This document shows positions 4,165-47,293 of a stretch of 64,000 nucleotides of DNA, piece by piece. Source of the DNA: an uncultured Bacteroidales bacterium (GTDB lineage Bacteria; Bacteroidota; Bacteroidia; Bacteroidales; UBA10428); assembly GCA_964503885.1 (NCBI GenBank), contig CAZDCD010000010.1:83435-147434 (forward strand). Reading direction: 5' to 3'. Below the pieces are notes generated by a model. It was not told where the DNA came from, made no database searches, and saw only the letters and a program-made list of their open reading frames with translations. Numbering within the stretch: position 1 is the stretch's first letter; each line of letters starts with the position of its first letter. A program made the translations under genes and the position numbers.

Positions 4165-4188
4165 AAAAAACAAAGAATAGCGAATGGT

Positions 4189-10011: not shown

Positions 10012-10146
10012 CAACACTTCCGGCCGTGGGAGAAAGTCGTAAGAAAAAATTCGTGACTTTATGTATGTTTAGCATAAAAACTCTTGTGGCGACCCTTTTT
10101 TTTACTACCGGCTACACTAAAGGCTCACTACGATACGGTTTTTTAT

Positions 10147-11005: not shown

Positions 11006-11016
11006 GGCAAACCGAA

Positions 11017-11646: not shown

Positions 11647-11737
11647 CTTTTTGCGAATAATCAATTGCGATCATAGTTTCCTTAATTGAATGCTGCCATA
11701 CCTCAGATGAGGATATGGCAGCAATGAACTGGCAAGG

Positions 11738-12979: not shown

Positions 12980-13031
12980 ACTTTAAGTTTTTATATTCAT
13001 ATTCTTGTTCTGTTCATTCTGTGCATACCTG

Positions 13032-13616
13032 CTAAAGTTGCTTTAGATTTACGGTGAAATTGATCGTAACCTCATCACCAGTTTTAAGTGCTCCCAGCAT
13101 GGCAGTTGGAGGTTTGATCCCAAATTCAGTCATGTTTATTTTTTTTGTTCCTGTAATGATAATCCTGTCTTTTCCCGTGACTTTTCCTGAATAGGGAATA
13201 CTTATTTTTTTGGTACTTCCTGCAAGGGTAAGCTCGCCTGAAGCCGTTCCGCTGAATGCTCCTCCCTGAATAGGAATTTTGTCTGCAGAAGTCAGACTGA
13301 ACCGGATAACCGGATATTTGTCCGTTTTAAGGGCATCGTGTGCCTTATTGTCCATAATGGAATTATCGCTTAATATGCTCGATGATTCTCCGATGAAGGA
13401 TACACTGCTTATTGTTACCGATGGATTTCCCACAGTAATGTCTGCATCACATTTGAATTTTTTCATGTTCATCTCCCAATCGTGTAAATTTGAAGTGCCC
13501 CCGATCGATAATATGCTGCTCTCAGGTATAACCCTGAAGCTCTCTTGTGCCTTCAGATTCCAGATACCTGCTATGAGCAGAATCTGGATGAAAATCGTAT
13601 ATTTTATTTCTTTCAT
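13032..13616 (-). CDS. YceI-family periplasmic lipid/polyisoprenoid-binding-like protein
   Basis: 194 aa with a signal peptide. GGTSNLHDWEM and the DKYPVIRF blocks are typical of the YceI family. Confidence 0.65.
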   Translation of the reverse strand: MKEIKYTIFIQILLIAGIWNLKAQESFRVIPESSILSIGGTSNLHDWEMNMKKFKCDADITVGNPSVTISSVSFIGESSSILSDNSIMDNKAHDALKTDKYPVIRFSLTSADKIPIQGGAFSGTASGELTLAGSTKKISIPYSGKVTGKDRIIITGTKKINMTEFGIKPPTAMLGALKTGDEVTINFTVNLKQL

Positions 13617-13679
13617 AATTAGTACTATTAATCCTATAGAAATAGTAGCGTAAAATTAGCAAAAAGGTTCAAAATATCT

Positions 13680-13697
13680 ATATGTTATATAACATAT
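13680..13697. promoter_or_regulatory. Perfect 18-bp palindrome ATATGTTATATAACATAT, candidate operator upstream of the YceI-porin-Rrf2 operon
   Basis: All 9 pairs are complementary. It lies 64 nt upstream of the 13616 start. The half-site ATATGTT recurs at 13706-13712. Confidence 0.35.
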
Positions 13698-13878
13698 TTC
13701 AGCTTAATATGTTCGCTATTAATTTATTAGATTGTTGCAGAAATGTTGCTTTTTTGTACGTGTTTTCGGATGATAACCGTTGTATAGATTTAACTGCATG
13801 AAAGTTTATGGTGAACAGACTAATCCTAACGGCAAAAAGTTATATTTTTGATCATTGAAAACCCTTTAGTTTCTTATT

Positions 13879-15642: not shown

Positions 15643-15708
15643 ACCACAACAACAGGATCATAATCCATACACTTTGAAACCCTGTTGTAATATAATAATG
15701 TACAGTAT

Positions 15709-21695: not shown

Positions 21696-24600
21696 ATGCT
21701 GAGGACTTTTTTTGAGATATTGAATGAAGGTATGTTTTCATCCAAGGCTTTGAATAGAAAAGAACTGGACTGGAAGATTTCGGAATGCGGCAGGAGCAAC
21801 TGGCTTCATTTATACAAATGGTCGGTAAAAAGGCAATTTTTAATCTTTGCTGTCTTATTTTTCCTTTCGGCCAGGTTATTTCCGGCAACCATTACCAGCA
21901 ATGCAATGACAGGGAACTGGAGTACACCGGCTTCATGGGTAGGAGGTGTGGTTCCGGGTGCAGGGGATGATGTAATTATCGCAAACAATGCCAATATAAC
22001 TGTTAATGGTAATTATACCTGTTTAAGCCTGATCCTGAATGGTGGAAATCAACCCTCATCGGTGATCATTTCAGGAACAAATTCACTTACGGTGACAAAT
22101 ACCACAACTTTATTCTGCAATTCAAACAATGATTGGAAATCTGTAGTGGTAGATAACGGATCTTTTACTTCCGGTTCCGTAACCATGAATTCAACCAATA
22201 ACAACAGCCGGGATGCCTTTATTGAAATTGCATCAGGAAACGCTACTGTTTTGGGGGATCTCACCATGAATGCCAATATAAATAGGAATTATATCCGTTT
22301 CACCGGGGCAGGAATCTTAAATGTAGGAGGCAATATTTCAGGTGGTGGTATTACCAGTACATTTGGAGGTGGAGGAACACCCACATCGGGTACTGTAAAT
22401 CTAAACGGATCGGTAGCTCAATCAATTGATGGATATACATTTTACAATTTTACAGTGTCTGGTAGTGGAGACAAATCGCAGTCTGCATCAATAACTGTTT
22501 CAAATGATTTTACCATGAATGGTGGTAATTTTCTTTTAAACGGCAACAATAGTACTATTTCAAATCTTATATTGACTTCCGGTACTATTCAACTTGGCGA
22601 TAACAATTTAACATTATCCGGTACACAATCTGGTGGTTCAGCATCGAGTATGGTAGTTACCGATGGCAATGGATATTTGATCCGTAATGCCAATGCCACA
22701 TTGCCTATTATTTTCCCGGTTGGTTCTGACGGATTATATGATCCTGTTTCAATTACTGCAATAAATAACACAACCGGAACTATACTTGTAAGAACAACTT
22801 CGTATGCTGGCTTAGGACCTAAGTATATTTCCCGCTACTGGGATATGTTGACCAGCGTTGCTGGTAAAATAATTACTTCAATCTTTCAATACGAAGGCTC
22901 TGAAATATCCATAACTCCGAACACAATATATTTCCGGCCAAATCTGGGAGCATGGCAGCCACCATCCGGTACACAAACCTTTGGTGCAAATACAATCACC
23001 ATTACCGGTACATCAGATATTACAACAACAAATTCTTCCTGGACTGCCGGGGCAATCGGAACGTATTATTCATATCAGACTGGTAACTGGAACAATCCCA
23101 CAACATGGACATCAGATCCGGGAGGTACGACACAGATGGGTTCAACCGTTCCCGGGACTAATGATTTTGTAGTGATCCTGGATGGAAGAACGATTAGCCT
23201 TACCGGCAATGTTAACGAGGCCGACATTGATATATCAATCAATGCAGGCGGGATCATAGACATGTCTACATACCAGTTTACGTCCGGACTGAAAGCTTTG
23301 CGTGGTCAGGGTACTTTACAACTGGCCTCTGTCAATTTTCCGTCGGCGACCACCAATACTTTTATAATTACAGGAGGTGGAACGACCGAGTACAATAATT
23401 CAGTAAATTTTACTCTCCCTGCTACTCAAACTACCTATAATCACCTGACCATAAATGCCCCCGGCATTATTGCAACTCAATTGAACAACCTTACACTGAA
23501 CGGAAACCTGTATGTGAAACAAGGTACCTATCGGATAAATGACAATACTGCGAATAGAAGGCAACTGACTATTTTCGGAAATGTAGTCGTAGATAACGGA
23601 GCTTCGCTGACCACAGGCGCCGGAAATACATTTACAACAGCCGTAACTGGTGTAACAGGTGGTACTGCACCATTTTTAAACTATTATATTAATAATACAC
23701 ACCAGGTAATTCTGTATGGTGATTTTACAAACGACGGAACAGTACGCTTCACCAATCAGGCATATCCGGTATTTGATGCCTTTCCCAATCAGGGTGCTGC
23801 CACAGTTTATTTTATGGGAGCAACGAACAATACGTTAACTTGTAACAATACTACTGATTTTTACAATCTTGTCCTTGATAAAGGGGTTGATCAAACGTTC
23901 AAATTAACAATATACTCAACTGGTTATTCAAATTTCAGGTTGTTTGGGGCTAATACTTCAGGGGGCGATGGAGGTGGAAATAATCCTAATCTGAAAAAAG
24001 CCCTGTGGATAAGAACCGGAACCTTGGATCTAAAAGGTTTAACCATAATTCCCTCCTTGACTGAAGGAAATTGTGATTCCGGTCCGGGCGGTCCTAATTC
24101 TGATTTTTATATACCTGCCAACGGTGCACTGATCCTTGACGGTGCAGATGTAATTGTGCTGTCTACAGCTGATGATTACAGGGAGCTGAATGTGGCTTAT
24201 GGGGTGGCAGCCCCAAACAATACTGCGGCAGGAATTAGTCTGAGCGGATGCAGCTCCTTTTCAATATATGGCAAAATCAAAATCAACAACGGGTATTTTT
24301 CGACACGTGAATCAGGTGGATTTATTACCTGGGATGTAGCCTCGGGACAATTTGAGCTTAACGGAGGTCAGGTCGATGCTAAGCAGTTCAGGGCCGCCGG
24401 TGGTACAGGAGGACTGGCTTCTTATACACAGACCGGAGGTATGCTATACCTGCGGGGCCGCTTTCAGCGTACACCCTTACAATACACGACGGTCGATGAC
24501 CTTAAGGATTTCACATCAGCCACGATAAATACCAACCGTATAGCTGCTGCATTGGATGGTTCTGTTGCAACGTTTAACCTGAATGCTGCAGAAAACGTAT

Positions 24601-27600
24601 TTAGTATGTCGGGCGGCACCATGCGGATATATGACGTATGTGGTGCGGGTGGAGGACAAAACGGAGCGTTTGAAGTACTTTCTTCATATGCAAATATTAA
24701 CGTAACAGGTGGCACGGTTGAAGTAATCCCGACAACTGGTTCAGGTGCGGATGCGACCAGCTATATTCTGGAATCGAATGCCCCTGTTTACAACCTTTTT
24801 GTCAGCAGGGTAAGCGGTACAGCACCGGTACTGTTAAATACGTATCCGTTAAAAGTCTTAAAAAATCTTACACTTCAGTCGGGTGTGTTGAATGCAAATA
24901 ATTTTGATGTAGCTGTAGGCGGTAATTTCATCATTGCACTTGGTACTACATACACAACCGGCACCAATCGCACCATATTTAATGGTACAGGAACGCAGTC
25001 GTTTGCGATCAATCTCGCCACACCCCTTACCGTAAACAAGTTGATTGTAGACAAATCAAGTTCTGATGTACTCATACTAGATGGCACTCAAAATACCCTG
25101 AATATAACGGATTCGCTGAAGATTTTGAACAGCCGCTTTAACGATAACAGCAAAACAGTGAATTGTGCCGCCAACATATTCAATTCCGGATATCATCTCG
25201 GATCAGGAAAGATTGTATTGAACAGCAATGCTGTGCAAAACATTGACGGTAACGGTACGGGCATTTTTCAGAATCTTGAATTGAACAAACCTGCAGCCGG
25301 AACGGCAGTTGTCAATATGAATGCTGTTTTTACCATCAACGGTACACTTACTTTTTCAGGCGCAGCTGCCGGGTATAAACCGATGAATATCCAAAACAAC
25401 GAACTTATCCTGGGAACAGATGCAATTGTTGCAGGAGCTGATGCAAACCGGTATATCCAGACAAGCGGGAATGCCGGGGACGGCGGATTAACCAGGCAAT
25501 ATTCGGCAGTTTCGCCTTCGTTCACCTTTCCTGTAGGTGCATCTTCGACATCTCATGCCCTTCCTGCTTATACTCCGGCCACGCTGGGAATTAACGGTTC
25601 TCCTGCGGCGTTCGGGTCGATCACAGTTATTCCGGTTGGTTATGAACATCCTGCTACGATCAATAACGGGCGGACCCTGACTTATTTCTGGCGGGTAAAA
25701 TCAAACAGTTTTACATTGGGAACTGCTACAGTGACTCACGGGTATACTTACGATCAGAATGATGTGATTACCGGTGCCGGAATAACCGAGAATGGTTATG
25801 TGGCTGCACGCTATCAGGCTACAACCTATTCCTGGTCAAAAGGTACCGTAAATGATGTTGATGAGGCGGCCAATATTGTTGGTGAGCCGGGTACAGGTAA
25901 CTTTCTTGAAAATGTTGCATTTATTGATGGCGATTATACTGCCGGTGATGATGCACCCACCGACCCGTTTGGTGCACCTGTGATTTTTTACAGCAGGCAG
26001 TCTGCAAACTGGAATCTGGCAACTACATGGTCAAATGTAAGCCATACCGGACCTGCTGCTGCAACCATTCCGGGTTTGAACGATGTGGTAATTATCGGCA
26101 ATGGCAATACCGTAAATCTTACAGGCAATCAAAATTGTGCAGTACTGCAAATTGAAAACGGGTCAACACTTGATATTTATACCTATACAGGAAGTACATT
26201 CAGTATGGTGGTTAATCACCCTAATGGAAATGGGTTGTTTCAGGTAACCACGCCGAAAACTCCAAATAATACCATTCCAGGATTGTTTACTTTTCCATCA
26301 GGTGATTTTTCTGATTTTAATGTGCATGGCGGTACCACAGAATTTTACGATATAGATGGCACTGTCGGAGCACTGTATATATTACCCGCCAATGTTATCC
26401 AATACGGAAACCTGATCCTGAGGGCCAGGGGAGGAGATAACCTTGTATTACCGAATAATGCCGCAACCACTGTCTACGGGGATTTGACTTGTACCGGAAA
26501 TGCAACCACTGCATGGATTGCGATGTGCTGGAATACCAATATATGGCCTTACTTTTCGGGCGTATATAATCCGACGATCGAAAAAACAGTAACAGTTAAA
26601 GGGAGTATGTACGTTGATGCGGGTAGCTTTGAGTTTTTCAACGACCAGGCTCCGCAGCATTTAATTGTCGAGGGTGATGTTGTTGTTGCGCCAGGGGCTG
26701 TATTGGAGATCTATCCGAATTATCCGTTTGCTACTCCGGTGGTGAACAATACGATTGCAATAGGCGGTTCCCTGATAAACAATAACGTTGTTACACTAAG
26801 ATCGACAGGGGGAGGAAGAACATATACTGTGGATGCAACCTTTTTTGGTGAAAATTCGGCAAGTATTACAAATACCTCCGGTATTCCGACAACCACACTG
26901 AATAATGTCCTTGTAAATAAAGGCAGTTCACAATCAGATTCGTTAATTATAGATATTGGTGGAACTCTTAATACTTTAGCTGATGGCTGGCTTACTTTGC
27001 AAAATGGAACCCTGGGGTATTTGAGAACCAATCCCAACTCTGATTTTACCATTACTACAACAAGTCCGTTTACAATACCTACTACAGCAGGTCTTTATAT
27101 CGATTACAGCAATTCGGGCAACAGGGATATTCTTCTTGCTGTTGGCAATTCCGATGGCAATGATGTATACCTTAATGGTAAACTGGCTCTTATCAACGGC
27201 AATGTGTATATAGGAAATACAAATGGCACAACTGTAAGGAATAACGATATTGAATATTCTGGCGGAGGTTCATCAGAAATTGAAATTCAGGGTGGTAACC
27301 TCATTGTTAATGGGCAGATCCGAAGAAATCCCGCTACTTCAGCCGGGGTCTTGAAATATACACAGAGTGGTGGTCAGCTTGTGATCAACGGACAGAATGC
27401 CAATACTGGCAATGCAAAATTAGAAATATTAAATGCCGGAAGCCAGTTCAATATGAGTGGTGGATCTCTGACCATAGTCAGGGGCGGTGGAGGAAATACA
27501 TTCGGAGATCTGTACCTGAGACCTGCGAGCTCAACGGTAACAGGTGGTGACATTGTATTTTCCCAGGTTCCGCCCGTTGGTCCCGTTGTTGATGCAGTGC

Positions 27601-30600
27601 AGGATTACAGACTCGACGCAACAGTATCTTTGAATAACCTTACCATAACAGGTAAAACAGCGGGACCTGCCCGGAATGCTACAGTTACTCTTCTTATCAG
27701 TCCGCTAACTCTGAACGGTTCGCTTACATTAAGCAATAACAGAAGCTTTTTTGATGCCAATTCTACGTACAATATCAATGTTACAATTAACGGAAACCTG
27801 AATAATTCGGGAACCTATTCCCATTATTTGAATACAACTACATTCAATGGCAATATTCAGGCTATTACAGGTACTTCACCAACAACATTTTACGATCTGG
27901 TGGTGAATCCCGTAACAAGGCTCACCCTGAACGGTAATACCACTGTAAACAGAAACCTTACCCTGAGCAGCGGAACATTAGAGTGTGGAAATTACACTGT
28001 ATATGTTGCCGGGAACCTGAACAATAATGCAACCTACACGGATAATAACACAGGCGTTGAACTGAATGGCAGCAGTCTTCAATATATATCCGGAACAGGC
28101 ACATACGGCCAGCTTGCACTTAACAATACTGCGGGAGCCAGACTGAATAACAGCATAACCCTTGAAAAGAACCTTGTACTTACACAGGGTATCCTGGATA
28201 TCAACAAATATTTGCTGTCACTGGGTGTGAACAGCAATATTTCAGGAGCACCATTCAGCTCGGCCAAAATGATCACTTCCGACGGAGTTTTCAGTAATGT
28301 GGGAATCAATAAGTTCTTTCCGATAATAGGTGCTCCCACAACATTTACCTTTCCGTTGGGTACAACCGGAAAATACACACCTGCGGTCCTTAGTATTAAT
28401 ACCAATACCAATGTGGGTTCTTTAAGACTTAACAACATTAATACCCGACATTCTGCTGTAATTGATCCGGCAAATGTGCTGGACTATTACTGGGAAATGG
28501 AAGGTAATGGTTTAATGGGATTTAACGGAAATATTGTATTTAACTACCTCCAGGAAGATGTACTGGGCTCTCAGGAAAACAATTACCTTGCAGCAAGGTT
28601 ATTAACCCCTGCTACCAGCTGGAGCCTGACTTCCACAGTCGATGATGTGGCCAATACGATAACAATTAATTATGTCAACACCGATAATCTTAGCGGAGAA
28701 TATACAGCCGGCATTAGTACTGCTTTTCCGCCGGATATACCTGAATATACCAGCAATTCCAATGGAGACTGGACTGATAATACGATTTGGACACAAACCG
28801 GTGGTACTTTGTATCCTTGTCCTCTGGGTGGACCCAATGGTTTTATTGTTACCATTGATCATGAGGTGACTGCAGATGCCAATTATTGTTCGGCATACAA
28901 GACAACAATCAATAATACACTGCGTATTGTATCACCCTATTTCGGACATAATCTGGGTATTGTTACCGGCAACGGTACTTTATATCTTGAGAGTGGTGTG
29001 ATCCCTGCCGGACGGTACACAAGTTTTCTCGATTGTTCAAACGATGCAACATTGGAATATGGCGGTACTGGCACCTATATATTAATTGCAGACCTTTATT
29101 CCAGCGTTCCTAATATTCTGCTTTCCGGAACAGGTACAAGGAATATACCGAATAAAGATTTAACGATATGCCATAGCTTGAAGATTGGAACAGCAACCGA
29201 TGGACCAGCATTCGATAATACCCTGAATAACCGCAAATTAACAATTCTGGGTACAATGGAACGATATAACACCGGCGTATTCAAAAGCGGTTCAGGCGCA
29301 GGTGCTACAGTATCATTTGCCGGTTCATCGGCTCAAACAATAGGTGGAATTTTAGGCGATTTTACAGGCACAAATGCCTTTAACAATCTTGAGATCAATA
29401 ATGCTGCCGGATTAACTATCAACACAAACGGTGCCATTGAAGTAAATGGTAACCTTATGCTCACCAGCGGAGTAATCCATACAGCCACTGCAGATAAGCT
29501 TACGATCATTAATTCAGCCATGAATTGTGTAATTCCTGCCGGAGGTAGTTCATCGTCCTATGTTGACGGACCATTGATCAAACGGATAAACCAAAGTGAT
29601 AATTTCCTTTTCCCGGTGGGAGAAGGAACAAACCTTGGGAATAAGATCACCCTGATGACCACTATGACAGGACCTGCCTTATGGACCGTGGAGTATCATA
29701 ATCCCAATACATTTACTACGTTCCAGGCACCGCTGACCTATGTCAATCTTGATGATTACTGGAACGTTACAGTGCCTTCGGCAAATCAGGCTATTGTTGA
29801 CCTGAAATGGAATCCGGCAAGTGATCTGACTCCTCTTATGACACAGAATGGACTCTCTGATATGCGTGTAGCAGAGCACAACAGCACAGATTGGATTGAA
29901 ATTTCCTCTTCAGCAACAGGCGATAATTACAACGGTAGTGTACAGACAGTCAGCCGGATTTCATTCCCAGTGGCAGGTAAAAATGTAACCACTGCATGTA
30001 TTAATGTCACCAAACCAAGGGCGACCCTATCTCCCTCAGGACCTGTTTGCGGTGCGGCCGGAATACTGGTTTCCTTTACTCAATCACCGGGATTGAACTA
30101 TACCTTAAGCTATACCATAAACGGAGTACCCCAGGTAGATGTGGCTATCTCTTCATTGCCGTATACACTGCCTACCCCTGTTCCAGGTATATATAGGCTC
30201 ACAGCCTTTACTTACAATAACGGACTAAATAACGGTGTGGTTGATGCAGGTACAGTAACAGCTTATGACATACCTACCACGGCTGATGCCGGTTCGAATC
30301 AATCGCTTTGCGGGGCAACAGGTACAACACTGGCTGGTAATACCCCACTGGTAGGATCAGGATTATGGAGCATCGTAAGCGGTATCGGAGGTACAGTAGT
30401 TACACCCGATTCACCTGCAAGTGATTTTAACGGAACAAACGGTACAACATATACATTAAGGTGGACAATAAGCAATGGCTCCTGCACATCTTCGGATGAT
30501 GTGGTTATAGCATTTCCGCTGTTGCCCCTGCAGCCCGGTGCATACATTGTAAGTTCTCAGAATGTTTGTCAGGGCCAGAATGGTGTGCCATACAGCGTAC

Positions 30601-31100
30601 CAAATGATCCATCGGTTTCCTATACATGGGTATATGGCGGTACCGGTGCTACCATTAACGGTACGGGCAATTCTGTTACCGTTGATTTCAGTACATTTGC
30701 AACCAGTGATACTTTAAGTGTCAGGGCCACCAACGGATGCGGCATAAGTGCCCCCAGGAACATCGCCATAACGGTAAATGCACTTCCTGTTCCGACAATT
30801 ACCGGAACTGATACAACGTGTCAGGGAAATATCATTGTATACTCCACTGAGGCCGGAATGACAAACTATACCTGGTCAGTAACAGATCTTGATATTCCTG
30901 CAGCTCATACCATAATTGCTGGGGGAGGCATTACCGACAACAGCATAACCATTCAGTGGGACGGCTATGAATACCATAGAATAAGCATAAATTATGAAAC
31001 TGCAGCAGGTTGTACAGCCGCCTCAGCTACCGAGCTGGATATATGGATCTCTAAGATCCCGGATACCGGCCCTGCATATTATATACCCAATTCACCTTAA
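21696..31100 (+). CDS. Giant (3134 aa) secreted beta-helix-like surface protein with four GNW-led supermodules and C-terminal Ig/PKD-like modules; no T9SS CTD; ends TGPAYYIPNSP
   Basis: A single uninterrupted ORF rich in N/T/G/S. The hydrophobic segment FLIFAVLFFLSARLF lies ~45 aa after the first ATG, so the start is uncertain. Repeated motifs are listed in the findings. Confidence 0.9.
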   Translation: MLRTFFEILNEGMFSSKALNRKELDWKISECGRSNWLHLYKWSVKRQFLIFAVLFFLSARLFPATITSNAMTGNWSTPASWVGGVVPGAGDDVIIANNANITVNGNYTCLSLILNGGNQPSSVIISGTNSLTVTNTTTLFCNSNNDWKSVVVDNGSFTSGSVTMNSTNNNSRDAFIEIASGNATVLGDLTMNANINRNYIRFTGAGILNVGGNISGGGITSTFGGGGTPTSGTVNLNGSVAQSIDGYTFYNFTVSGSGDKSQSASITVSNDFTMNGGNFLLNGNNSTISNLILTSGTIQLGDNNLTLSGTQSGGSASSMVVTDGNGYLIRNANATLPIIFPVGSDGLYDPVSITAINNTTGTILVRTTSYAGLGPKYISRYWDMLTSVAGKIITSIFQYEGSEISITPNTIYFRPNLGAWQPPSGTQTFGANTITITGTSDITTTNSSWTAGAIGTYYSYQTGNWNNPTTWTSDPGGTTQMGSTVPGTNDFVVILDGRTISLTGNVNEADIDISINAGGIIDMSTYQFTSGLKALRGQGTLQLASVNFPSATTNTFIITGGGTTEYNNSVNFTLPATQTTYNHLTINAPGIIATQLNNLTLNGNLYVKQGTYRINDNTANRRQLTIFGNVVVDNGASLTTGAGNTFTTAVTGVTGGTAPFLNYYINNTHQVILYGDFTNDGTVRFTNQAYPVFDAFPNQGAATVYFMGATNNTLTCNNTTDFYNLVLDKGVDQTFKLTIYSTGYSNFRLFGANTSGGDGGGNNPNLKKALWIRTGTLDLKGLTIIPSLTEGNCDSGPGGPNSDFYIPANGALILDGADVIVLSTADDYRELNVAYGVAAPNNTAAGISLSGCSSFSIYGKIKINNGYFSTRESGGFITWDVASGQFELNGGQVDAKQFRAAGGTGGLASYTQTGGMLYLRGRFQRTPLQYTTVDDLKDFTSATINTNRIAAALDGSVATFNLNAAENVFSMSGGTMRIYDVCGAGGGQNGAFEVLSSYANINVTGGTVEVIPTTGSGADATSYILESNAPVYNLFVSRVSGTAPVLLNTYPLKVLKNLTLQSGVLNANNFDVAVGGNFIIALGTTYTTGTNRTIFNGTGTQSFAINLATPLTVNKLIVDKSSSDVLILDGTQNTLNITDSLKILNSRFNDNSKTVNCAANIFNSGYHLGSGKIVLNSNAVQNIDGNGTGIFQNLELNKPAAGTAVVNMNAVFTINGTLTFSGAAAGYKPMNIQNNELILGTDAIVAGADANRYIQTSGNAGDGGLTRQYSAVSPSFTFPVGASSTSHALPAYTPATLGINGSPAAFGSITVIPVGYEHPATINNGRTLTYFWRVKSNSFTLGTATVTHGYTYDQNDVITGAGITENGYVAARYQATTYSWSKGTVNDVDEAANIVGEPGTGNFLENVAFIDGDYTAGDDAPTDPFGAPVIFYSRQSANWNLATTWSNVSHTGPAAATIPGLNDVVIIGNGNTVNLTGNQNCAVLQIENGSTLDIYTYTGSTFSMVVNHPNGNGLFQVTTPKTPNNTIPGLFTFPSGDFSDFNVHGGTTEFYDIDGTVGALYILPANVIQYGNLILRARGGDNLVLPNNAATTVYGDLTCTGNATTAWIAMCWNTNIWPYFSGVYNPTIEKTVTVKGSMYVDAGSFEFFNDQAPQHLIVEGDVVVAPGAVLEIYPNYPFATPVVNNTIAIGGSLINNNVVTLRSTGGGRTYTVDATFFGENSASITNTSGIPTTTLNNVLVNKGSSQSDSLIIDIGGTLNTLADGWLTLQNGTLGYLRTNPNSDFTITTTSPFTIPTTAGLYIDYSNSGNRDILLAVGNSDGNDVYLNGKLALINGNVYIGNTNGTTVRNNDIEYSGGGSSEIEIQGGNLIVNGQIRRNPATSAGVLKYTQSGGQLVINGQNANTGNAKLEILNAGSQFNMSGGSLTIVRGGGGNTFGDLYLRPASSTVTGGDIVFSQVPPVGPVVDAVQDYRLDATVSLNNLTITGKTAGPARNATVTLLISPLTLNGSLTLSNNRSFFDANSTYNINVTINGNLNNSGTYSHYLNTTTFNGNIQAITGTSPTTFYDLVVNPVTRLTLNGNTTVNRNLTLSSGTLECGNYTVYVAGNLNNNATYTDNNTGVELNGSSLQYISGTGTYGQLALNNTAGARLNNSITLEKNLVLTQGILDINKYLLSLGVNSNISGAPFSSAKMITSDGVFSNVGINKFFPIIGAPTTFTFPLGTTGKYTPAVLSINTNTNVGSLRLNNINTRHSAVIDPANVLDYYWEMEGNGLMGFNGNIVFNYLQEDVLGSQENNYLAARLLTPATSWSLTSTVDDVANTITINYVNTDNLSGEYTAGISTAFPPDIPEYTSNSNGDWTDNTIWTQTGGTLYPCPLGGPNGFIVTIDHEVTADANYCSAYKTTINNTLRIVSPYFGHNLGIVTGNGTLYLESGVIPAGRYTSFLDCSNDATLEYGGTGTYILIADLYSSVPNILLSGTGTRNIPNKDLTICHSLKIGTATDGPAFDNTLNNRKLTILGTMERYNTGVFKSGSGAGATVSFAGSSAQTIGGILGDFTGTNAFNNLEINNAAGLTINTNGAIEVNGNLMLTSGVIHTATADKLTIINSAMNCVIPAGGSSSSYVDGPLIKRINQSDNFLFPVGEGTNLGNKITLMTTMTGPALWTVEYHNPNTFTTFQAPLTYVNLDDYWNVTVPSANQAIVDLKWNPASDLTPLMTQNGLSDMRVAEHNSTDWIEISSSATGDNYNGSVQTVSRISFPVAGKNVTTACINVTKPRATLSPSGPVCGAAGILVSFTQSPGLNYTLSYTINGVPQVDVAISSLPYTLPTPVPGIYRLTAFTYNNGLNNGVVDAGTVTAYDIPTTADAGSNQSLCGATGTTLAGNTPLVGSGLWSIVSGIGGTVVTPDSPASDFNGTNGTTYTLRWTISNGSCTSSDDVVIAFPLLPLQPGAYIVSSQNVCQGQNGVPYSVPNDPSVSYTWVYGGTGATINGTGNSVTVDFSTFATSDTLSVRATNGCGISAPRNIAITVNALPVPTITGTDTTCQGNIIVYSTEAGMTNYTWSVTDLDIPAAHTIIAGGGITDNSITIQWDGYEYHRISINYETAAGCTAASATELDIWISKIPDTGPAYYIPNSP

Positions 31101-31246
31101 TTAATGCGATGTACAGGTTGACAATAACAAAGAAACGGTTGATCAAAATGGTGAAACAAATACATAAAGAATACGATAAAGTAAATAGAATAGTGAATTT
31201 AATTCAATAACAATTATTGCTCATGTTTAATTTAAATTTTAGAAAG

Positions 31247-32215
31247 ATGAAAAGAGGTTTATTTTTGAGAACGTTGACAAGCGTTGCGGTAGCGATGTTT
31301 GTAGCTGGTGGACTGTTTGGCCAGGTGGCAGACGGTGATTATCAGGTGTACGATGCTAACAGGACTGCACCAACGAACATTGATTATGTTACGTTGAAAG
31401 CAGCTGGTACTACTATGGGGTATTATGCTTTACCCGATCCTTACTTTCACCCGAATTACGATGCCGGAAACGGGTGGGCGCTGACCGCAGGCTTTGTGTG
31501 GAACTGGACAGCACCGTCTGATCCGGGAACACCTCCGGCTTTCAATAAGCCTGGCGCTGCAAACTATGTTGAAATTACCTATTCACAGGCTGGTATTTAC
31601 AACATCAATGTGGCTGAAGAATCTCCGGCAGCGTATGGTGGATGCGCAGATGCAAGTCCGACTGTAATGAATGTTACTGTCATTGATCCGCCATCTGCCT
31701 TATTTACCACAGCCGATATTACTTCAGGCCTTTGCGGTGATCAGGCAGCACAGAGCGTGGCAGTTGCTATTACAGAAGCTATTCCGGATGCCCTTGGTGC
31801 ATTTGCATTTGCTGTTTCCGAAGTGGTTGAAAACCTCGATGCAGGTGGTACACCTGTCGGTGCTCCGCTCAGTACAACAACCGATTATGTGGATTTTCCG
31901 ACATCTGGTAAAGCTAACAGCGGGACGGCCGGAATGGTCGCTGCAACCCCGACATTCACGTATACCTTCAATTCATCTGCAATAACTGTGCAGAACAGTA
32001 TGCGTACAAGGTATACCTATACCTTGCTGAAGGCAACGGATGCTCCGGGAGCAGCAGCTGAAGGTATTATCTCAGCTATATCGGAAAAGTCCGACTATAT
32101 TTCGGGTACCGTAAATACATATCCTTTTGGTGCAAAAACCACCACGGTATTTGTCGTGAACCCGGCACCTGCAACTGGTCCTATTTATTATATTCCTAAC
32201 AATTTTGAATATTAA
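31247..32215 (+). CDS. Secreted protein (about 322 aa from ATG 31247) sharing an Ig-like module and the C-terminal TGPIYYIPN tail with the giant
   Basis: MKRGLFLRTLTSVAVAMFVAGGLFGQ signal. The module ...YVEITYSQAGIYNINVAEESPAAYGGCADASPTVMNVTV follows. It ends ATGPIYYIPNNFEY. Confidence 0.7.
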   Translation: MKRGLFLRTLTSVAVAMFVAGGLFGQVADGDYQVYDANRTAPTNIDYVTLKAAGTTMGYYALPDPYFHPNYDAGNGWALTAGFVWNWTAPSDPGTPPAFNKPGAANYVEITYSQAGIYNINVAEESPAAYGGCADASPTVMNVTVIDPPSALFTTADITSGLCGDQAAQSVAVAITEAIPDALGAFAFAVSEVVENLDAGGTPVGAPLSTTTDYVDFPTSGKANSGTAGMVAATPTFTYTFNSSAITVQNSMRTRYTYTLLKATDAPGAAAEGIISAISEKSDYISGTVNTYPFGAKTTTVFVVNPAPATGPIYYIPNNFEY

Positions 32216-32274
32216 CAGGACTTTTATAACAGCCATTTGAATGAATCGTTAATTCAACAGTTTTTAAGTTTCCA

Positions 32275-33297
32275 TTGGCTACAAAAATTAATATATTGAC
32301 CCTTTTTATCATGGCATTGATACCTGTTGCCGGTCGCGGACAAAGTTTACCTTATGCCTGCGCCGGCACCAGGGCTGCCTATGGGGTCAGCGGATATATT
32401 AATTCGGCGTTCTACTGGACTGTCGACGGAGGAAGCATAATAGCCGACGAAAACGATACTGTTGTTGTGGAGTGGGATATGACGCGGAGAGTTCACCAGA
32501 TTCAGGTGGTTGAAATTACACCGTTCGGTTGTATAGGTGCGCCTGTTATGGCACAGGTAAATGTCAGGGCACCTGACGTTGAGATCGGTGATGAAGTGGA
32601 GATATGTAAGGATGATTCAGTGCTGTTTGATGCCGAGATCAATTACGATACCCAGTTATCGTATATATGGCAGGACAGCAGCACGCAAGCTACATTTTAT
32701 GGTAAAAACGGAGGTATTGTGTGGGTGAAAGCAACAGGACTTGACGGATGCTCGGATTACGATTCGGCTGTATTGATTGTTAACCCTTTACCTGTTGTAA
32801 ACCTTGGCCGTGATACAGCCCTTTGCGGTAATTCCTCACTCGAACTTGATGCCGGGTATTTTGCCATGTATAACTGGTCGACAAACCAGATTGTAAATCC
32901 CATTACTATAGGACCGACAAACCTTCCGGCCGATACTATCACCGTTGAGGTTACCGATAACAATGGTTGCATTTCTTCGGATACCATGGTGATTTATATG
33001 TGCGAGGTTGACAGGTTTTTTGCCAATATCCCCAACACAATAATTCCAAGTGATCCAAACAGCGCCAACCATACCTGGAGGATCGATCATATTGATCTGT
33101 TTCCGGGTGCGGTGGTGGAGATTTTCGACCGCTGGGGAAGGCTGATCTATCATGCCGAGGATCCTGATCCTGAGAATGTGTGGGATGGTGTATCAAAAGC
33201 CGGCAAGGAAATGCCGATGGATTCGTATTATTACGTGATCGATCTGAAATACAGGAATTCCGATCCGCTGGTCGGTAACATTAACATTATCCGGTAG
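32275..33297 (+). CDS. T9SS type-B sorting-domain (gliding-motility-associated C-terminal domain) protein, 340 aa
   Basis: TTG start and a signal peptide. Three Cys-containing Ig-like modules, then NIPNTIIPSDPNSANHTWRIDHIDLFPGAVVEIFDRWGRLIYH...WDGVSKAGKEMPMDSYYYVIDL...GNINIIR, which matches the CHU_C/type-B CTD pattern. Confidence 0.8.
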   Translation: MATKINILTLFIMALIPVAGRGQSLPYACAGTRAAYGVSGYINSAFYWTVDGGSIIADENDTVVVEWDMTRRVHQIQVVEITPFGCIGAPVMAQVNVRAPDVEIGDEVEICKDDSVLFDAEINYDTQLSYIWQDSSTQATFYGKNGGIVWVKATGLDGCSDYDSAVLIVNPLPVVNLGRDTALCGNSSLELDAGYFAMYNWSTNQIVNPITIGPTNLPADTITVEVTDNNGCISSDTMVIYMCEVDRFFANIPNTIIPSDPNSANHTWRIDHIDLFPGAVVEIFDRWGRLIYHAEDPDPENVWDGVSKAGKEMPMDSYYYVIDLKYRNSDPLVGNINIIR

Positions 33298-33388
33298 CGG
33301 ATACCGGATGAATAAAGCTATATTTGCGGAATTTTTACCTATTGAAAATAGAAGAGGAACAGTTTAGGAATCGTTGATTCCATATGCG

Positions 33389-34405
33389 ATGAAGAAATAT
33401 CTGATCATAATGAGTGTTCTGGTGGTTGCGGGTATATCCATAACCTATGCGCAGCAATTGCCCATATACAGCCAGTATATGATGAACGGGTTCCTGTTGA
33501 ATCCTGCTGTGGCCGGCCATGAAGGGTACACTTCCATAAATATCACCGGCCGTGAACAATGGCTGGGGTTAAAAGATGCCCCTTCGACCTATGCCCTCAG
33601 CGCCCAGACCCGGCTGCTCAAGAACAGCTTCATTTCACGGGGTTCTTCTATAAAACGCAGACGCCGTGCCATGTCGCGAAGCGGCAGGGTAGGGATTGGC
33701 ACATACATCTTTAGTGACTGGAATGGTGCCTTTAACCGGACGGGCTTGCAATTCACGTATTCGTACCATATCCCCCTGCGAAAATCACAGCTCTCATTCG
33801 GCGCTTCATTAACAGGCTACCAGTTCAGGATCGACGATAGCAAAATTAAATTGTACGACGAGAGCCAGTTCTATGGTGACATGCGTAAATCCACCCTTAT
33901 TCCCGATGCAAATTTCGGCGTCTATTATACCGACAGAAACATCTATGCAGGATTTTCCGCCCTGCAGTTGTTTGAGAATACATTCAAGCTTTCAAGTAAA
34001 GATCAGGCTGAATTCAAGATGGTCAGGCACTATTTTCTGATGGCCGGATACCGTTTCGACATGATCGATTTTGTATTTGTGGAACCCTCATTTCTCTTGA
34101 AGACAACCGATCAATTTGTATCACAGCTTGATGTCAATCTTAAATTTTATTTCAAGGAAGATTATTGGGCTGGTCTGTCTTACCGTACCGGCGGTAGCTA
34201 CAGCATATCCGAGGAATCGATACATGGCGGGGGAGCTTCCCTGATAATCATGGGAGGTGCCCGTGTGGATAAGTTTTACTTCGGTTATGCTTTTGATTAC
34301 ACATTAAGCGCCATAAGCAAATACAGCATAGGGTCACATGAAATCGTCCTTGCTGTAAAATTCGGCGACAATGCACGCAGGTACAGGTGGCTGAACAGGT
34401 ACTGA
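33389..34405 (+). CDS. PorP/SprF-family type IX secretion system membrane protein
   Basis: After the signal peptide, QQLPIYSQYMMNGFLLNPAVAG is the family's signature N-terminus. The size (~338 aa) and beta-barrel-like composition also fit. Confidence 0.85.
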   Translation: MKKYLIIMSVLVVAGISITYAQQLPIYSQYMMNGFLLNPAVAGHEGYTSINITGREQWLGLKDAPSTYALSAQTRLLKNSFISRGSSIKRRRRAMSRSGRVGIGTYIFSDWNGAFNRTGLQFTYSYHIPLRKSQLSFGASLTGYQFRIDDSKIKLYDESQFYGDMRKSTLIPDANFGVYYTDRNIYAGFSALQLFENTFKLSSKDQAEFKMVRHYFLMAGYRFDMIDFVFVEPSFLLKTTDQFVSQLDVNLKFYFKEDYWAGLSYRTGGSYSISEESIHGGGASLIIMGGARVDKFYFGYAFDYTLSAISKYSIGSHEIVLAVKFGDNARRYRWLNRY

Positions 34406-34409
34406 TGCA

Positions 34410-35279
34410 TTATTCTTCGCTGAATACACTTTTATAGCTTCCCAGATCAATATTGCGGATCTCATAGATGTAACTGTAAAGTTTGAGTTGCTTGCCTGCA
34501 TTATCGGTCTCGGAAAAATAGCTCAGGCTTCCTCCCGGGTAATACCCATAAGCATATTTCAGCATTAGTTCTCCGGAATTAGTATACACCTTTTTTTCAT
34601 GCAACAGACCTTTAGCGTTGTAATTAAACGTATCTTTTTCAGTAACCTGACTCTTATCCGCCATTATTCGTATTTCCTCTATTACGCTCTTCTGATTCTT
34701 GGAGTTATACGTGATGTTCTCTGAAACGGATCTCACACCATTGGGATATTGTTTTTTGTATTTGGTATACCGCATCACCGGCAAGTGATCATTGTTATAG
34801 CTAATTGTTGTTTGCGACCTGTTTTTTTTTCCTGGTCCGTACTCTGTGATTTTTACCGGTAAGGTATCCTGCGTGTAATCGATTGTTTTTTTACCGGTAA
34901 CGGCCAGTTCACCTGCTTTCTTTTCAAACCTGGTTCCTGATATTTTTGCGCCAACAGAATTGTATTCATATTTTTCAGCATACAGCAATGAATCGTCCGG
35001 CGAAAAGTGCTCTTCGGAAACGACTTTACCATCGTCCGTAAAGAATACAATATAGTTCGATATCTGATGGGTTACAGGATCAAAGTAAATGTCTCTTACC
35101 GGCCTCATCTCCGAATCAAAAGTTTTTTGCCTTATCGTAAAGTTTTTCGTGGTTGGCCTGCCGTTGATGATTTCACGGGACAGGGTCAGGTGAATTCTTA
35201 CCGAATCGGTTTGTGCTGTAGCTGGCAGCAACAGAATAAAGCATGCGGATGCTAACAATATCGCAGGTGTATTTCTCAT
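34410..35279 (-). CDS. Secreted protein built of short Tyr/Lys-rich beta-hairpin-like repeats (function unknown)
   Basis: Signal MRNTPAILLASACFILLLPATAQ. Recurrent xYxYNxxGxxxxE-type units (EKYEYNSVGAKIS, TFNYNAKGLLHEKKVY, KYAYGYYPGG). Confidence 0.55.
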   Translation of the reverse strand: MRNTPAILLASACFILLLPATAQTDSVRIHLTLSREIINGRPTTKNFTIRQKTFDSEMRPVRDIYFDPVTHQISNYIVFFTDDGKVVSEEHFSPDDSLLYAEKYEYNSVGAKISGTRFEKKAGELAVTGKKTIDYTQDTLPVKITEYGPGKKNRSQTTISYNNDHLPVMRYTKYKKQYPNGVRSVSENITYNSKNQKSVIEEIRIMADKSQVTEKDTFNYNAKGLLHEKKVYTNSGELMLKYAYGYYPGGSLSYFSETDNAGKQLKLYSYIYEIRNIDLGSYKSVFSEE

Positions 35280-35289
35280 AGAATTGACG

Positions 35290-36552
35290 TTAATTGGTTG
35301 GTCGACTGCTGCAATGAATATCGATCAGTTCTTGTGCTGCCGTGTAACCCAGTTCAAGGGCTTTGTTAAGGTCCTTACATGCTTCTCCGGTACGCTGAAG
35401 ATTGAGCAGCGACACGGCCCTTGAATAATAAGCCCCGGCCAGTTTCGGATTCAGCTCGATTGCTTTCGTATAATCGGCAACTGCCTCCTTGTGCTGTTGC
35501 AGGTTTCCTTCTGAAATTCCGCGGTTAAAATAAGCGGTGGACGAGGAGTGATTTAATTCAATGGCTTTGGTATAAAAGGGAATCGATTGCCTGTAATCAT
35601 CAAGCATGCTTTTGGTAACACCCAGGAGAAAATAAACCTGTGCATCAGAAGGGTCATATTCAAGAGATTTCTTCAGATCGGCAAATGCCTTATCAGGCTT
35701 TTTAAGCTGAATATAGGCCAGCGCCCTGTTATAATAACTCTTCTCCGGACGGTGTTTAAGCGCTATGGCTTTTGTAAAATCTGCAACGGCTTTTTCGAAT
35801 TGTTTGTTCTGGGCGTAACTCACTCCCCGGTGGTAATATGCATCGGCGAATTCCGGATCCAGGCTGATTGCCTTGGTTAGATCTTCAATTGCGGCAACGT
35901 CGTTTCCGATACCCATTTTGAAAAAGCCGCGGTTATAATAGGCGCTTGCATTGCTTGGATCAATCTCGATGATCTTATCATAATCGCCGATTGCTCCCAT
36001 ATAATCATCAAGGGCCGATCTGGCTTCGATGCTTTTCAGGTAGGCATCGATGTTTTCTTTATTCAGTGCTATGGCCAGCTTATAATCGCTGATCGAACCC
36101 CTGAAATCACCTGTATGGGCCTTTGCGATACCTCTCTGGTAATACGCTTCGGCATATAGCGAATCGAGTACAAGGGCTTTTGTAAATGCTTGTGCTGCCT
36201 TATCGTAATCTTTTCCTGAGATGAGAATAAGTCCCCGATAATAGTATGCCTCTGGTATGATGCTGTCTATATGCAGTGCCATATTGATGTTTTCCATTGC
36301 TTCTCCTGCTTTATTCATTGAATACAGGGCTTTTCCTCTGGCCAGATAGGCACCGGATGATTGTTTATTCCATCGCAGGGCTTTATTGAACAGGTTTAAT
36401 GCCGTCTGATACTCTTTTTCTTTCAGAAAAACATTCCCTTTTTCAAAATAGCAGTCACTTATCTGATTTTTAAAGCTATACAAAACAATTGATGCAATAA
36501 TAAGAATTGCAACCAGCAGCAGCAAGACATACAAACCTTTTATGTGTTTCAT
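35290..36552 (-). CDS. Membrane-anchored tetratricopeptide-repeat (TPR) protein
   Basis: N-terminal TM LYVLLLLVAILIIASIVLY followed by about ten 34-aa units with the A..Y..G.......A..DF.KAI.L.P pattern. Confidence 0.8.
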   Translation of the reverse strand: MKHIKGLYVLLLLVAILIIASIVLYSFKNQISDCYFEKGNVFLKEKEYQTALNLFNKALRWNKQSSGAYLARGKALYSMNKAGEAMENINMALHIDSIIPEAYYYRGLILISGKDYDKAAQAFTKALVLDSLYAEAYYQRGIAKAHTGDFRGSISDYKLAIALNKENIDAYLKSIEARSALDDYMGAIGDYDKIIEIDPSNASAYYNRGFFKMGIGNDVAAIEDLTKAISLDPEFADAYYHRGVSYAQNKQFEKAVADFTKAIALKHRPEKSYYNRALAYIQLKKPDKAFADLKKSLEYDPSDAQVYFLLGVTKSMLDDYRQSIPFYTKAIELNHSSSTAYFNRGISEGNLQQHKEAVADYTKAIELNPKLAGAYYSRAVSLLNLQRTGEACKDLNKALELGYTAAQELIDIHCSSRPTN

Positions 36553-38161: not shown

Positions 38162-40666
38162 TCAACGTATGATATACCTGTCGATTTTCGATAACATTTC
38201 ATTCAGATTCAGGGGTTTTGAAAGATAATCATCGCAGCCTGAGAGCAGACACTTTTCCCTTTCTCCTTCCATAGCAAATGAAGTTTGTGCAATAACAGGT
38301 ACTTTCGAATCAATTTTTTTTATCTGCTGGGTGGCAATGTACCCATCCATTACAGGCATTTGAATATCCATCAATACAAGATGGAAGGAACTATCCCTGA
38401 AAATATCAACAGCTTCGGCTCCGTTGATTGCCCTGTAAATTTTAGCCTTGGTTCTTGACAGTGCAGATTCCAGTACCTTATAATTCAGGTCTTCATCTTC
38501 AGCGATAAGGATTTTTTTGCCTTTCCAGTCATAGTGCAGGAGCATATTCGCGGCTAAGCTCGATTTCCTAAGTTCCTGAACTGAAAAAGATCCGATCTCA
38601 ATGGTTTTAAAAGGTATTGTAAAATAAAATGTCGATCCTGCCTGAACAGCAGATTCAACCCATATTTTTCCGCCAAGAAGCTCTACAAGGTTTTTTGTGA
38701 TGGCAAGCCCTAAACCCGTGCCGCCAAACTGGTCTCCTGCAGTGGGATCTATCTGTGAAAACCGCTCGAAAATATACTGGAACTTGCTTTCAGGTATCCC
38801 GATACCGCTGTCTTTTACATAAAACTGCAGGTAAGTAGACTGACGGGTAAATCCGAATTCGACAAATCCATCGACAGTATACTTTATCGCATTTTCAAGG
38901 AGGTTATTCAGGATCTGCCTCAGCCTGTGGCCATCAGTATCAATAGTAACGCTGTTTTTCAGGCAATTCCTATCAAGCGTTAGGATGATGTGTTCTTTGT
39001 TCCTCTTATTTTTCAATTCGTTGAACATATTCAGCAAATCAAAACAGATGGCCGTAATGTTACAGCTCGACTTGCTGATAGTGAGCTGCCGGGCTTCGAT
39101 CCTGGCAATATCTATAATATCATCGATGAGTCCGAGCAGGCTTTCGCCGGCAGTGGTCACATAATTTATATACTCATCCCTTTTTGCTTTGGTAAGATCA
39201 GGGTCTCTGATAAAATTTGAAAAGGCAAGAATTGCATTCATCGGGGTCCTGAGCTCATGCGACATGTTCGACAGAAAGGCTGATTTAAGCCTGTCGGATT
39301 CCTCGGCTATTTTTCGTTCGCTGATCTCAGTCTTCAGTTCAGCCGATTTCTGTTCCACCTGTTTTTCAAGCAGTAACTTGTGTTCGTGCAGTTCCTTTTC
39401 GACCTTTCTTTTCTGAATATAGGCTACAATGATTATTACCAGAAGACTTAGGAGGATCAGGATACCAATACTCAGGAATTTTTTATACAATTTTTGCTGA
39501 GCAAGTTCTTTGCTCTTTATGGTTAATTCATTATCAAGAAGTTCAAGCTTATATTCAGCTTCCATTTCCATGATCTTGTTTTTCGACTCTACAGATTTAA
39601 TAGAATCTTCGAGATCATCAAACAGCTTGAAATATTCCAGAGATTTCTTGTAGTCATTTTGATCGGCGTACAAATTTGAAATGGCTTCGTAATTGGCCAT
39701 AATTCCCTGTACATATCCTGCATGTTTTGCCAGTTCAAGACTTTTTTCATAATAGGTTAACGCTGTGCTCAGGTCTTTCAGGTTGGAGTAAGATGTACCC
39801 ACATTGTGCATGGCAAGGATTTTTCCAATCTCAAAGTCGATTTCGTTGAAAACCTTCAACGATTCCTTGTAGTATCGAAGCGCCTGGGTATATTCCTTGC
39901 TCTTCTGACAAATCAGCCCGTTGTTGCTTAATGAAATACCCATACCTTCCTTGTCATCGAGGTCTTTGTAAATTTTATATGATTTGGTGATATTTTCTTT
40001 TGCAGCATCGAACTCATCGTTTCCGATGTAGATCAGGCCCAGGTTTTGGGTGAGCCCGGCAATGTTCCTCTTGTTTTTTAACCGTTCATTTATATGAAGC
40101 GATTTTTTATAGTAATACAATGCGTTTTCGGTGTTATTCAGTTCGTGGTGCACCAACCCCATGTTCTGGTAGATGTTGGCTTCCTCCTGCTCACGGTTGA
40201 GCCTGATGTATATCTTCAATGCTTCCTGGTAGTCTTTTATCGCTTCTTCATAATTTCCCTGATAATACTCTGCCAGCCCGAGAAATTTGTTGATCTCCGC
40301 GATCTGTTCCGTGTTGTTGAACCGCCTGAAAATATCGAGCGCCTGCAGCAGGTAGCCTTTTGAATCCTTATACTCTTCTTTATTGTATTTTGCCAAGCCC
40401 ATTCCGGATGAGGCGATTGCTTTCAGGCTGTCGATATTGAGTAGTCTTGAGATGGCATATGACCTCGAATAATAATTAAATGCCGTAGCCGGGGAATCGT
40501 TAAGGTAATAATGCCCCAGTTTATTCAGGATTAGCGACTGTGTAACATTTTTTTCATCCGAAAGCTCTTTTTTCAGGCTATCGGGATCATCTCCGGTGGA
40601 TACCGGGTATGAATTCATGGGAATTGCAAGCAGCAGGGAAGTTAATATGAAAAAAGCAGCTCTCAT
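38162..40666 (-). CDS. Hybrid sensor histidine kinase with periplasmic/N-terminal TPR array and C-terminal receiver domain
   Basis: Signal peptide, ~8 TPR-like units, TM LSIGILILLSLLVIIIVAYI, a coiled coil, H-box SHELRTPMNAI, an ATPase G-boxes region (GTGLGLAI), and REC KILIAEDEDLN...DIQMPVMDG. Confidence 0.85.
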   Translation of the reverse strand: MRAAFFILTSLLLAIPMNSYPVSTGDDPDSLKKELSDEKNVTQSLILNKLGHYYLNDSPATAFNYYSRSYAISRLLNIDSLKAIASSGMGLAKYNKEEYKDSKGYLLQALDIFRRFNNTEQIAEINKFLGLAEYYQGNYEEAIKDYQEALKIYIRLNREQEEANIYQNMGLVHHELNNTENALYYYKKSLHINERLKNKRNIAGLTQNLGLIYIGNDEFDAAKENITKSYKIYKDLDDKEGMGISLSNNGLICQKSKEYTQALRYYKESLKVFNEIDFEIGKILAMHNVGTSYSNLKDLSTALTYYEKSLELAKHAGYVQGIMANYEAISNLYADQNDYKKSLEYFKLFDDLEDSIKSVESKNKIMEMEAEYKLELLDNELTIKSKELAQQKLYKKFLSIGILILLSLLVIIIVAYIQKRKVEKELHEHKLLLEKQVEQKSAELKTEISERKIAEESDRLKSAFLSNMSHELRTPMNAILAFSNFIRDPDLTKAKRDEYINYVTTAGESLLGLIDDIIDIARIEARQLTISKSSCNITAICFDLLNMFNELKNKRNKEHIILTLDRNCLKNSVTIDTDGHRLRQILNNLLENAIKYTVDGFVEFGFTRQSTYLQFYVKDSGIGIPESKFQYIFERFSQIDPTAGDQFGGTGLGLAITKNLVELLGGKIWVESAVQAGSTFYFTIPFKTIEIGSFSVQELRKSSLAANMLLHYDWKGKKILIAEDEDLNYKVLESALSRTKAKIYRAINGAEAVDIFRDSSFHLVLMDIQMPVMDGYIATQQIKKIDSKVPVIAQTSFAMEGEREKCLLSGCDDYLSKPLNLNEMLSKIDRYIIR

Positions 40667-47110: not shown

Positions 47111-47293
47111 AGAATTGGGGTTTTGAGTGTACTTTAATTCCTGATTAAAAAACAGTGTATTGAGTTGTAATGATTCATACTTCAAGCTGTTCATTACCCT
47201 TATTATTTTCAGCGTTAAAAAACCATTAAATGAAGGCTTAAAAAAAGCACTACACTCAGATGGCATTCAGGGCATAAATATATTAAGAAAATT

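Follow-up and report, generated by a model that had tools for sequence, protein, structure and literature searches.

Gene organisation and the type-B sorting domain of P3

The stretch of DNA analysed here (the window, 64,000 nucleotides (nt) of contig CAZDCD010000010.1 from an uncultured Bacteroidales bacterium) contains four co-directional plus-strand open reading frames (ORFs) that encode a giant protein, two smaller proteins with signal peptides (P2 and P3), and a PorP/SprF-family outer-membrane protein (P4). The giant and P2 lack any recognised C-terminal sorting domain (CTD) of a type IX secretion system (T9SS) and end in a common short tail; P3, encoded between P2 and P4, carries a type-B CTD. 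A preliminary description had identified a T9SS cargo module here, and its account of four ORFs in a row is borne out by the coordinates, with intergenic gaps of 146 nt (giant to P2), 59 nt (P2 to P3) and 91 nt (P3 to P4). Its statement that the CTD carrier is the smallest cargo was incorrect, P2 being smaller (322 aa) than P3 (340 aa). Scans for sigma-70 promoters and terminators found 36 against 37 expected, i.e., chance level. The features of the four genes, all on the plus strand, are as follows:

21696 to 31100, plus strand: giant, 3134 amino acids (aa), rich in N, T and G, with PKD-like domains near the C-terminus and no CTD
30543 to 30767, plus strand: PKD_6 (PF19408), best-scoring stretch of the giant, aa 2950-3024, E 9.2e-12
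31047 to 31097, plus strand: giant-class C-terminal tail, ISKIPDTGPAYYIPNSP; consensus [KR]xP[ED]TGP[QASE]Y[HY][IV]PN, from 77 non-redundant giant-class tails
31247 to 32215 (ORF from 31217), plus strand: P2, 322 aa from the ATG, with a signal peptide and two tandem immunoglobulin (Ig)-like beta-sandwich domains
32159 to 32212, plus strand: P2-class C-terminal tail, NPAPATGPIYYIPNNFEY; consensus P[AT]PxTGP[IV]Y[HY][IV]PN plus four residues
32275 to 33297, plus strand: P3, 340 aa, with a signal peptide, three PKD-like Ig domains and a type-B CTD
33025 to 33288, plus strand: type-B CTD of P3, aa 251-338; PF13585 57.5 bits, TIGR04131 45.5 bits
33389 to 34405 (ORF from 33374), plus strand: P4, PorP/SprF-family outer-membrane protein, from hidden Markov model (HMM) matches

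HMM searches support the assignments made earlier for both P3 and P4. The type-B CTD of P3 exceeds both curated cut-offs (57.5 bits against 27 for CHU_C/PF13585, over aa 251-330; 45.5 bits against 35 for TIGR04131), and P4 lies well above those for PF11751 (PorP_SprF; 254 bits, cut-off 22.3) and TIGR03519 (244.6 bits, cut-off 90.55), each profile being covered in full. There were 196 homologues of P3; among the matches listed, PF13585 was found in 120 of 120, and the protein is also strongly conserved outside the CTD. Its best fold matches were stem and base fragments of the appendage protein GhpA (Foldseek E 6e-15 to 6e-10).

No CTD was detected in the giant, as first described. Neither the giant nor P2 gave a match at E ≤ 0.1 to the type-B models (PF13585/TIGR04131) or to the type-A models (PF18962/TIGR04183, Por_Secre_tail), and none of the frames 3' of the giant's stop codon holds a hidden CTD. 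As a positive control, a GH8 glycoside hydrolase encoded elsewhere in the window (45707-47266, minus strand) carries an ordinary type-A CTD (E 7.7e-10), showing that the organism uses the T9SS and that the CTD models work on this genome. The sole HMM match of the giant was PKD_6, in two stretches near the C-terminus (E 9e-12). The protein contains 12.6% T, 11.4% G and 10.8% N, and self-BLAST found no internal repeats at E ≤ 1e-3. A hydrophobic core resembling that of a signal peptide occupies aa 47-64 of its ORF, which leaves the true start codon uncertain. About 45 residues precede this core (window 21696-21890), with no closer in-frame ATG, and orthologous giants have long N-terminal regions too; this region is either an extended signal peptide or the product of a non-ATG start.

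The giant, P2 and P3 had been proposed to share an Ig-like module. This stands for the giant and P3: the PKD_6 domain of the giant shows homology to each of the three Ig-like domains in P3 (E 3e-10 to 2.5e-7), and profile comparisons with hhalign gave probabilities of 90-97% (E 2e-6 to 3e-10). For P2 the homology is marginal (6%, E 0.006), though AlphaFold2 folds P2 as Ig-like sandwiches.

A C-terminal tail and a gene trio conserved in Bacteroidales

The giant terminates in KIPDTGPAYYIPNSP and P2 in NPAPATGPIYYIPNNFEY, and both C-termini contain the 13-residue signature PxTGPxY[HY][IV]PN. Profiles built from 77 non-redundant giant C-termini and 77 P2 C-termini showed homology confined to the last beta-strand and the tail (26 columns, probability 97%, E 1.5e-11), from which the tail is a stronger common feature of the giant and P2 than the Ig module. 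The strict motif TGP.Y[HY][IV]PN occurred 80 times among the 3168 ORFs of the genome loci described below, on each occasion no more than eight residues from the C-terminus, and exactly four residues follow the motif in 83-90% of tails of both classes; such fixed spacing from the free C-terminus is as expected of a recognition signal. The residue after TGP separates the two classes, being I or V in P2 and Q, A, S or E in giants, and in the wider P2 family TGP[IV]YH is better conserved than PN. A full-text literature search for YHIPN, YYIPN and GPIYHIPN returned no paper, and Pfam scans of the bare tail peptides gave nothing useful.

Two other identities for the tail were considered and are not supported. 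The first, a type-B CTD truncated after its first strand, was suggested by the common start IPNx[FWY], but only three columns (IPN) align (hhalign E 0.28). The second was a donor A-strand for the first Ig domain of P3; the tail is disordered when modelled in fusion with P3, and mature P3 has a first strand of its own (E26-32).

Among tail-bearing proteins, P2 is conserved most widely. No Pfam or NCBIfam family matches it, the FctA pilin domain being a weak hit (E 0.048). A word-indexed search returned 239 homologues, all unnamed and mostly 45-65% identical, from Bacteroidales metagenome-assembled genomes (MAGs); a profile search of 1.84 billion representatives returned 444 clusters (50% identity), and E was ≤ 1e-10 for 290. 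Nearly all of the clusters are 290-420 aa long with alignments reaching the last residues of the protein, and fusion to a CTD was found in none of the 444. The P2 profile also matches repeats of a 6293-aa protein that has CnaB/SpaA-like repeats and a C-terminal hydrophobic anchor. The AlphaFold2 model of P2 (mean predicted local distance difference test (pLDDT) score 91.7) comprises two tandem Ig-like sandwiches, for which a fold search found only generic Ig tandems, followed by the tail, which has a pLDDT of about 86 and no regular secondary structure.

One explanation of these features is a pilus-like fibre in which P2 polymerises head to tail through its tail, with the giant at the tip and P3 basal on P4, in an order like that of sortase-built or type V pili. 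The breadth of P2 conservation, its paired sandwiches and the high conservation of both its mature N-terminus and its tail are compatible with a shaft subunit, the class-specific residue after TGP would fit different acceptor sites, and the FctA hit and the matches to the CnaB/SpaA-like protein point in the same direction. The likeness to such pili is by analogy only, in the order of tip adhesin, conserved shaft and basal anchor and in the resemblance of the PxTG core to LPxTG. Unlike in sortase substrates, only 8-10 residues follow PxTG, with no membrane-spanning or other hydrophobic segment and no charged end. P2 also matches no type V (FimA/Mfa) pilin family and has no lipoprotein signal, its type-I-like signal peptide preceding Gln rather than Cys. 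With polymerisation of P2 a conjecture and its fold matches confined to generic Ig tandems, we consider a fibre of this kind unlikely.

We surveyed the locus by scanning one genome per GTDB species, which returned 70 loci; 72 loci were analysed. Carriers include MAGs of Rikenellaceae and Tenuifilaceae and Perlabentimonas gracilis M08_MB (L058), which was the sole cultured carrier found. The gene for P3 follows that for P2 in 68 of the 72 loci and P4 follows P3 in 64, with order and strand kept, such that synteny in related genomes holds for the trio P2-P3-P4 and a cognate PorP/SprF gene adjoins P3 in the same arrangement as in the window. Of the 58 loci that have space for a gene before P2, 28 carry a tail-bearing gene immediately upstream of it; most of these encode giants of 1100-3300 aa, and none of the 28 has a CTD. 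The trio is thus kept far more widely than the giant, a pattern that, as gene order, fits P3 as a dedicated partner rather than ordinary cargo.

Metagenome contigs were scanned with a DNA pattern for the giant-class tail, yielding 73 loci. Downstream sequence of at least 1.3 kb was available for 39 giant-class tail genes; the next gene encoded P2 in nine, a homologue of P5 (the protein encoded beyond P4, see below) in one and an unrelated protein in 29. One contig holds two different tail-bearing giants (L118, L133), and in Tenuifilaceae the trio occurs without an adjoining giant (L001, L031) while a tail-bearing giant is encoded elsewhere (L073). The presence of tails away from the trio, and of two on one contig, indicates that the tail is a modular signal present on many proteins, with P2 the constant member among them. 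A further locus (L129) carries two 655-aa tail-bearing ORFs (157-2124, minus strand; 2287-4254, plus strand) that diverge from a 162-nt gap and are identical in their last 18 residues; an inverted duplication could explain this pair, as could an artefact of assembly.

These surveys also bear on whether the giant of the window once had a CTD that was lost through truncation, frameshift or assembly error. An ordinary CTD was found neither among the 28 tail-bearing genes adjoining P2 nor among dozens of tail-bearing giants from metagenomes, and no giant of the examined loci was matched by the P3 CTD in phmmer. Instead, those 28 genes terminate in the same motif followed by a stop codon, and more than 50 tail-bearing genes on metagenome contigs share this ending. 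Together with the empty frames after the giant's own stop codon and the CTD-less P2 family, these endings effectively rule out such a loss. The N-terminal passengers of the giants vary widely and the tail is the same throughout; the occurrence of CTD-less, tail-bearing giants with divergent passengers across relatives indicates that the split arrangement is ancient and selected rather than the result of truncation.

Proposed coupling of tail-bearing proteins to the P3-P4 pair

Cognate PorP-like proteins, encoded adjacently, are required by type-B CTD proteins, which bind to them and are anchored by them (PMC9143113, PMC12618676). By family membership and adjacency, P3 and P4 would form such a cognate pair and serve as a surface anchor, as in PG1035-PorP and SprB-SprF. 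We tentatively propose, at somewhat less than even confidence and from sequence comparison, that the module makes up a conserved appendage on the cell surface of uncultured Bacteroidales, with this pair as its basis and the tail coupling CTD-less proteins to P3-P4. P2 and the giant, which have Sec signals and no CTD, would use the tail as a trans-acting docking or sorting signal to the anchor. Coupling could take place on the surface or in the periplasm; in the latter case the proteins would pass the translocon as hitch-hikers. P3 would be the constant CTD-bearing adaptor, P2 a constant tail-bearing connector or stalk subunit, and the giants exchangeable adhesin heads, whose genes may adjoin the trio, as in the window, or lie at other sites of the genome. 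The coupling of P2 and the giants to P3-P4 is less certain than the pairing of P3 with P4.

The C-terminus of P4 bears on the kind of complex that the pair would form. In SprF, a Cys-x-Cys motif at the periplasmic C-terminus provides the link to GldK and the gliding track (PMC12635249). This motif was found in none of 69 P4 homologues; 68 of them end in RRYRWLNR[YF] or a one-residue variant, the exception being a frameshifted ORF (L048). Without such a pair of cysteines in P4, the complex is more likely static than propelled. The C-tail of P4 itself (its last 10 codons) is conserved and presumably periplasmic, unlike the Cys-x-Cys tail of SprF in sequence. Six loci (L003, L007, L009, L032, L049, L061) carry two tandem PorP/SprF paralogues after P3, and the second copy terminates in RRYRWLERY in the last four of these.

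Several observations weigh against the proposed coupling. It rests on synteny and the common tail, and export of the giant and P2 is predicted. The pLDDT of the tail in the P2 monomer suggests that the tail may pack on P2's own domain rather than be a free peptide. With P2 following only nine of 39 metagenome tail genes, adjacency is dispensable, and a core T9SS component could be what reads the tail. A literature search for hitch-hiker (piggyback) secretion in the T9SS gave nothing relevant. When the last 25 residues of P2 were joined in cis to mature P3 and modelled with AlphaFold2, using 47 P3 homologues, the tail had pLDDT below 50 and no secondary structure, and P3 folded as three sandwiches and the CTD, with pLDDT 84-97 for most blocks; this fusion is a weak test, since the cis construct lacks alignment depth in the tail columns. 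The earlier suggestion that the small CTD protein acts as adaptor for the giant is partly supported: the split arrangement is real and conserved, and the cis-fusion of tail and P3 gave no support to the adaptor role.

Some of these observations would be accommodated if the tail acted by itself as a very short C-terminal signal of a new class, recognised by a core T9SS component or by P4 without an intermediary, with P3 a mere co-cargo of P4. The fixed position at the extreme C-terminus, the many tail-bearing giants encoded away from the trio, the loci with two tandem PorP-like genes and the lack of any sign of tail-P3 docking in the fusion model are consistent with this. However, known T9SS signals are folded domains of 70-100 residues, export by a type-B CTD needs all five conserved motifs (PMC12618676), and the tail resembles the start of a type-B CTD only at IPN. 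An autonomous signal also leaves unexplained why tail-bearing P2 is always directly before P3-P4, and we regard it as the main alternative, though a rather unlikely one.

Alternatively, the giant and P2 may not depend on the T9SS. They would then be periplasmic, or be exported along a different route, and a looser functional or regulatory link would account for their closeness to P3-P4. The absence from both proteins of a CTD of any known type, and the distance of many giants from the trio, agree with this view. It accounts poorly for an order P2-P3-P4 kept across lineages in which P2 is only 25-60% identical, for the PKD-like domains common to giants and P3, and for the character of the giant itself, an N/T/G-rich protein of 3134 aa with Ig-like domains that is typical of surface adhesins. 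We therefore consider T9SS independence improbable.

The proposed coupling to P3-P4 can be compared with known systems, of which the parts are familiar. The sprB-sprF operon of Flavobacterium johnsoniae, which includes sprC and sprD, is a giant adhesin operon that ends in a PorP/SprF-family gene and has extra CTD-less proteins encoded upstream. As in the pairing proposed here, the adjacently encoded carrier of that system recognises its cognate type-B CTD (PMC12618676); SprB carries its own CTD, whereas here the giant has none and the 340-aa P3 bears it. P4 further differs in lacking the Cys-x-Cys tail of SprF (PMC12635249), and the tail motif is not known in the SprB system. The best structural matches of P3 come from the grappling-hook system GhpA-GhpB-GhpC of Aureispira, in which GhpA is a T9SS-secreted, outer-membrane-anchored appendage made of a chain of Ig domains, with PorP and PorE homologues encoded downstream (bioRxiv 10.1101/2024.01.29.577165). 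GhpA is a single giant chain that forms a heptamer and has its own T9SS sorting domain; in the present module a small chain bears the CTD and the giant is a protein apart, and no PorE-like (OmpA_C) gene is found in the cluster, the neighbouring genes encoding a family-less repeat protein and a TPR-only protein. PG1035-PorP-PorE of Porphyromonas gingivalis and Fjoh_3952-3951-3950 are similar in that a type-B CTD protein of modest size is held at the cell surface by a PorP-like protein in a static, non-gliding complex (PMC9143113, PMC12618676). These complexes differ in including the peptidoglycan-binding PorE, and tail-bearing partners have not been reported there. The type-B CTD, the PorP/SprF protein and the PKD-like Ig chains are known parts, the arrangement is new, and the signature at the C-terminus of the giants is distinct and undescribed.

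At present, type-A or type-B CTDs serve to predict T9SS cargo. It is possible, though doubtful, that the tail represents a third kind of T9SS-linked C-terminal signal, through which proteins without a CTD, giants of about 3000 aa among them, are exported and/or anchored to the surface in trans via P3 and P4, wherever in the genome their genes lie; this would be hitch-hiker secretion, or a modular loading of adhesins, in the T9SS. Should it prove to be a trans-acting T9SS signal, it would constitute a new class of signal and the first split of cargo and sorting domain over two polypeptides in the T9SS. If a short tail and an adaptor give access to the system, the cargo inventories of many Bacteroidales would be incomplete, with the largest adhesins missed; the groups concerned would be Rikenellaceae, Tenuifilaceae and many MAGs from sediments and digesters. 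Heterologous proteins could then also be loaded onto a PorP-type anchor by means of this compact tag.

Flanking genes

The order and content of the four-gene module are as previously described; its conserved neighbourhood reaches further, to two minus-strand genes beyond P4 whose membership of the module is tentative:

34410 to 35279, minus strand: P5, 289 aa, with a signal peptide and weak YD/RHS-like repeats; no family match
35290 to 36552, minus strand: TPR protein, 420 aa, with an N-terminal hydrophobic anchor

The P5 gene is convergent with that of P4 and lies 4 nt beyond its stop codon. Homologues of P5 adjoin the module in 25 of the 72 loci, in the same position in 10 and directly upstream of P2 in 15; in two loci (L073, L094) one lies directly 3' of a tail-bearing giant that has no trio beside it. 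Homologues of the TPR protein (E 1e-76 to 1e-141) occur in 17 loci, 3-5.5 kb from the start of P2 and in either orientation.

P2, P3 and P4 (window 31247-34405) and P5 each begin with Gln after predicted signal-peptide cleavage. Gln at the mature N-terminus is a pattern known in Bacteroidota for N-terminal pyroglutamate formation.

Further downstream, the window encodes a hybrid sensor kinase with TPR, HisKA, HATPase and receiver domains (38162-40666, minus strand). In four loci (L005, L008, L037, L046), a strong homologue (E ≤ 1e-149) is encoded about 7-8 kb downstream of P2, with weaker matches elsewhere; the kinase may regulate the module, or its recurrence may simply be synteny. A 141-aa protein (51231-51656, minus strand) is a distant relative of P5 (jackhmmer E 4e-16) with a weak match to a MORN-variant repeat. 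On the upstream side, the module is flanked by genes for a TonB-dependent receptor and an esterase, both unrelated to it, and a polysaccharide-degrading cluster, likewise unrelated, occupies window positions 1195-17547 (SASA esterase, GH115, GH9, alpha-amylase and GH2).

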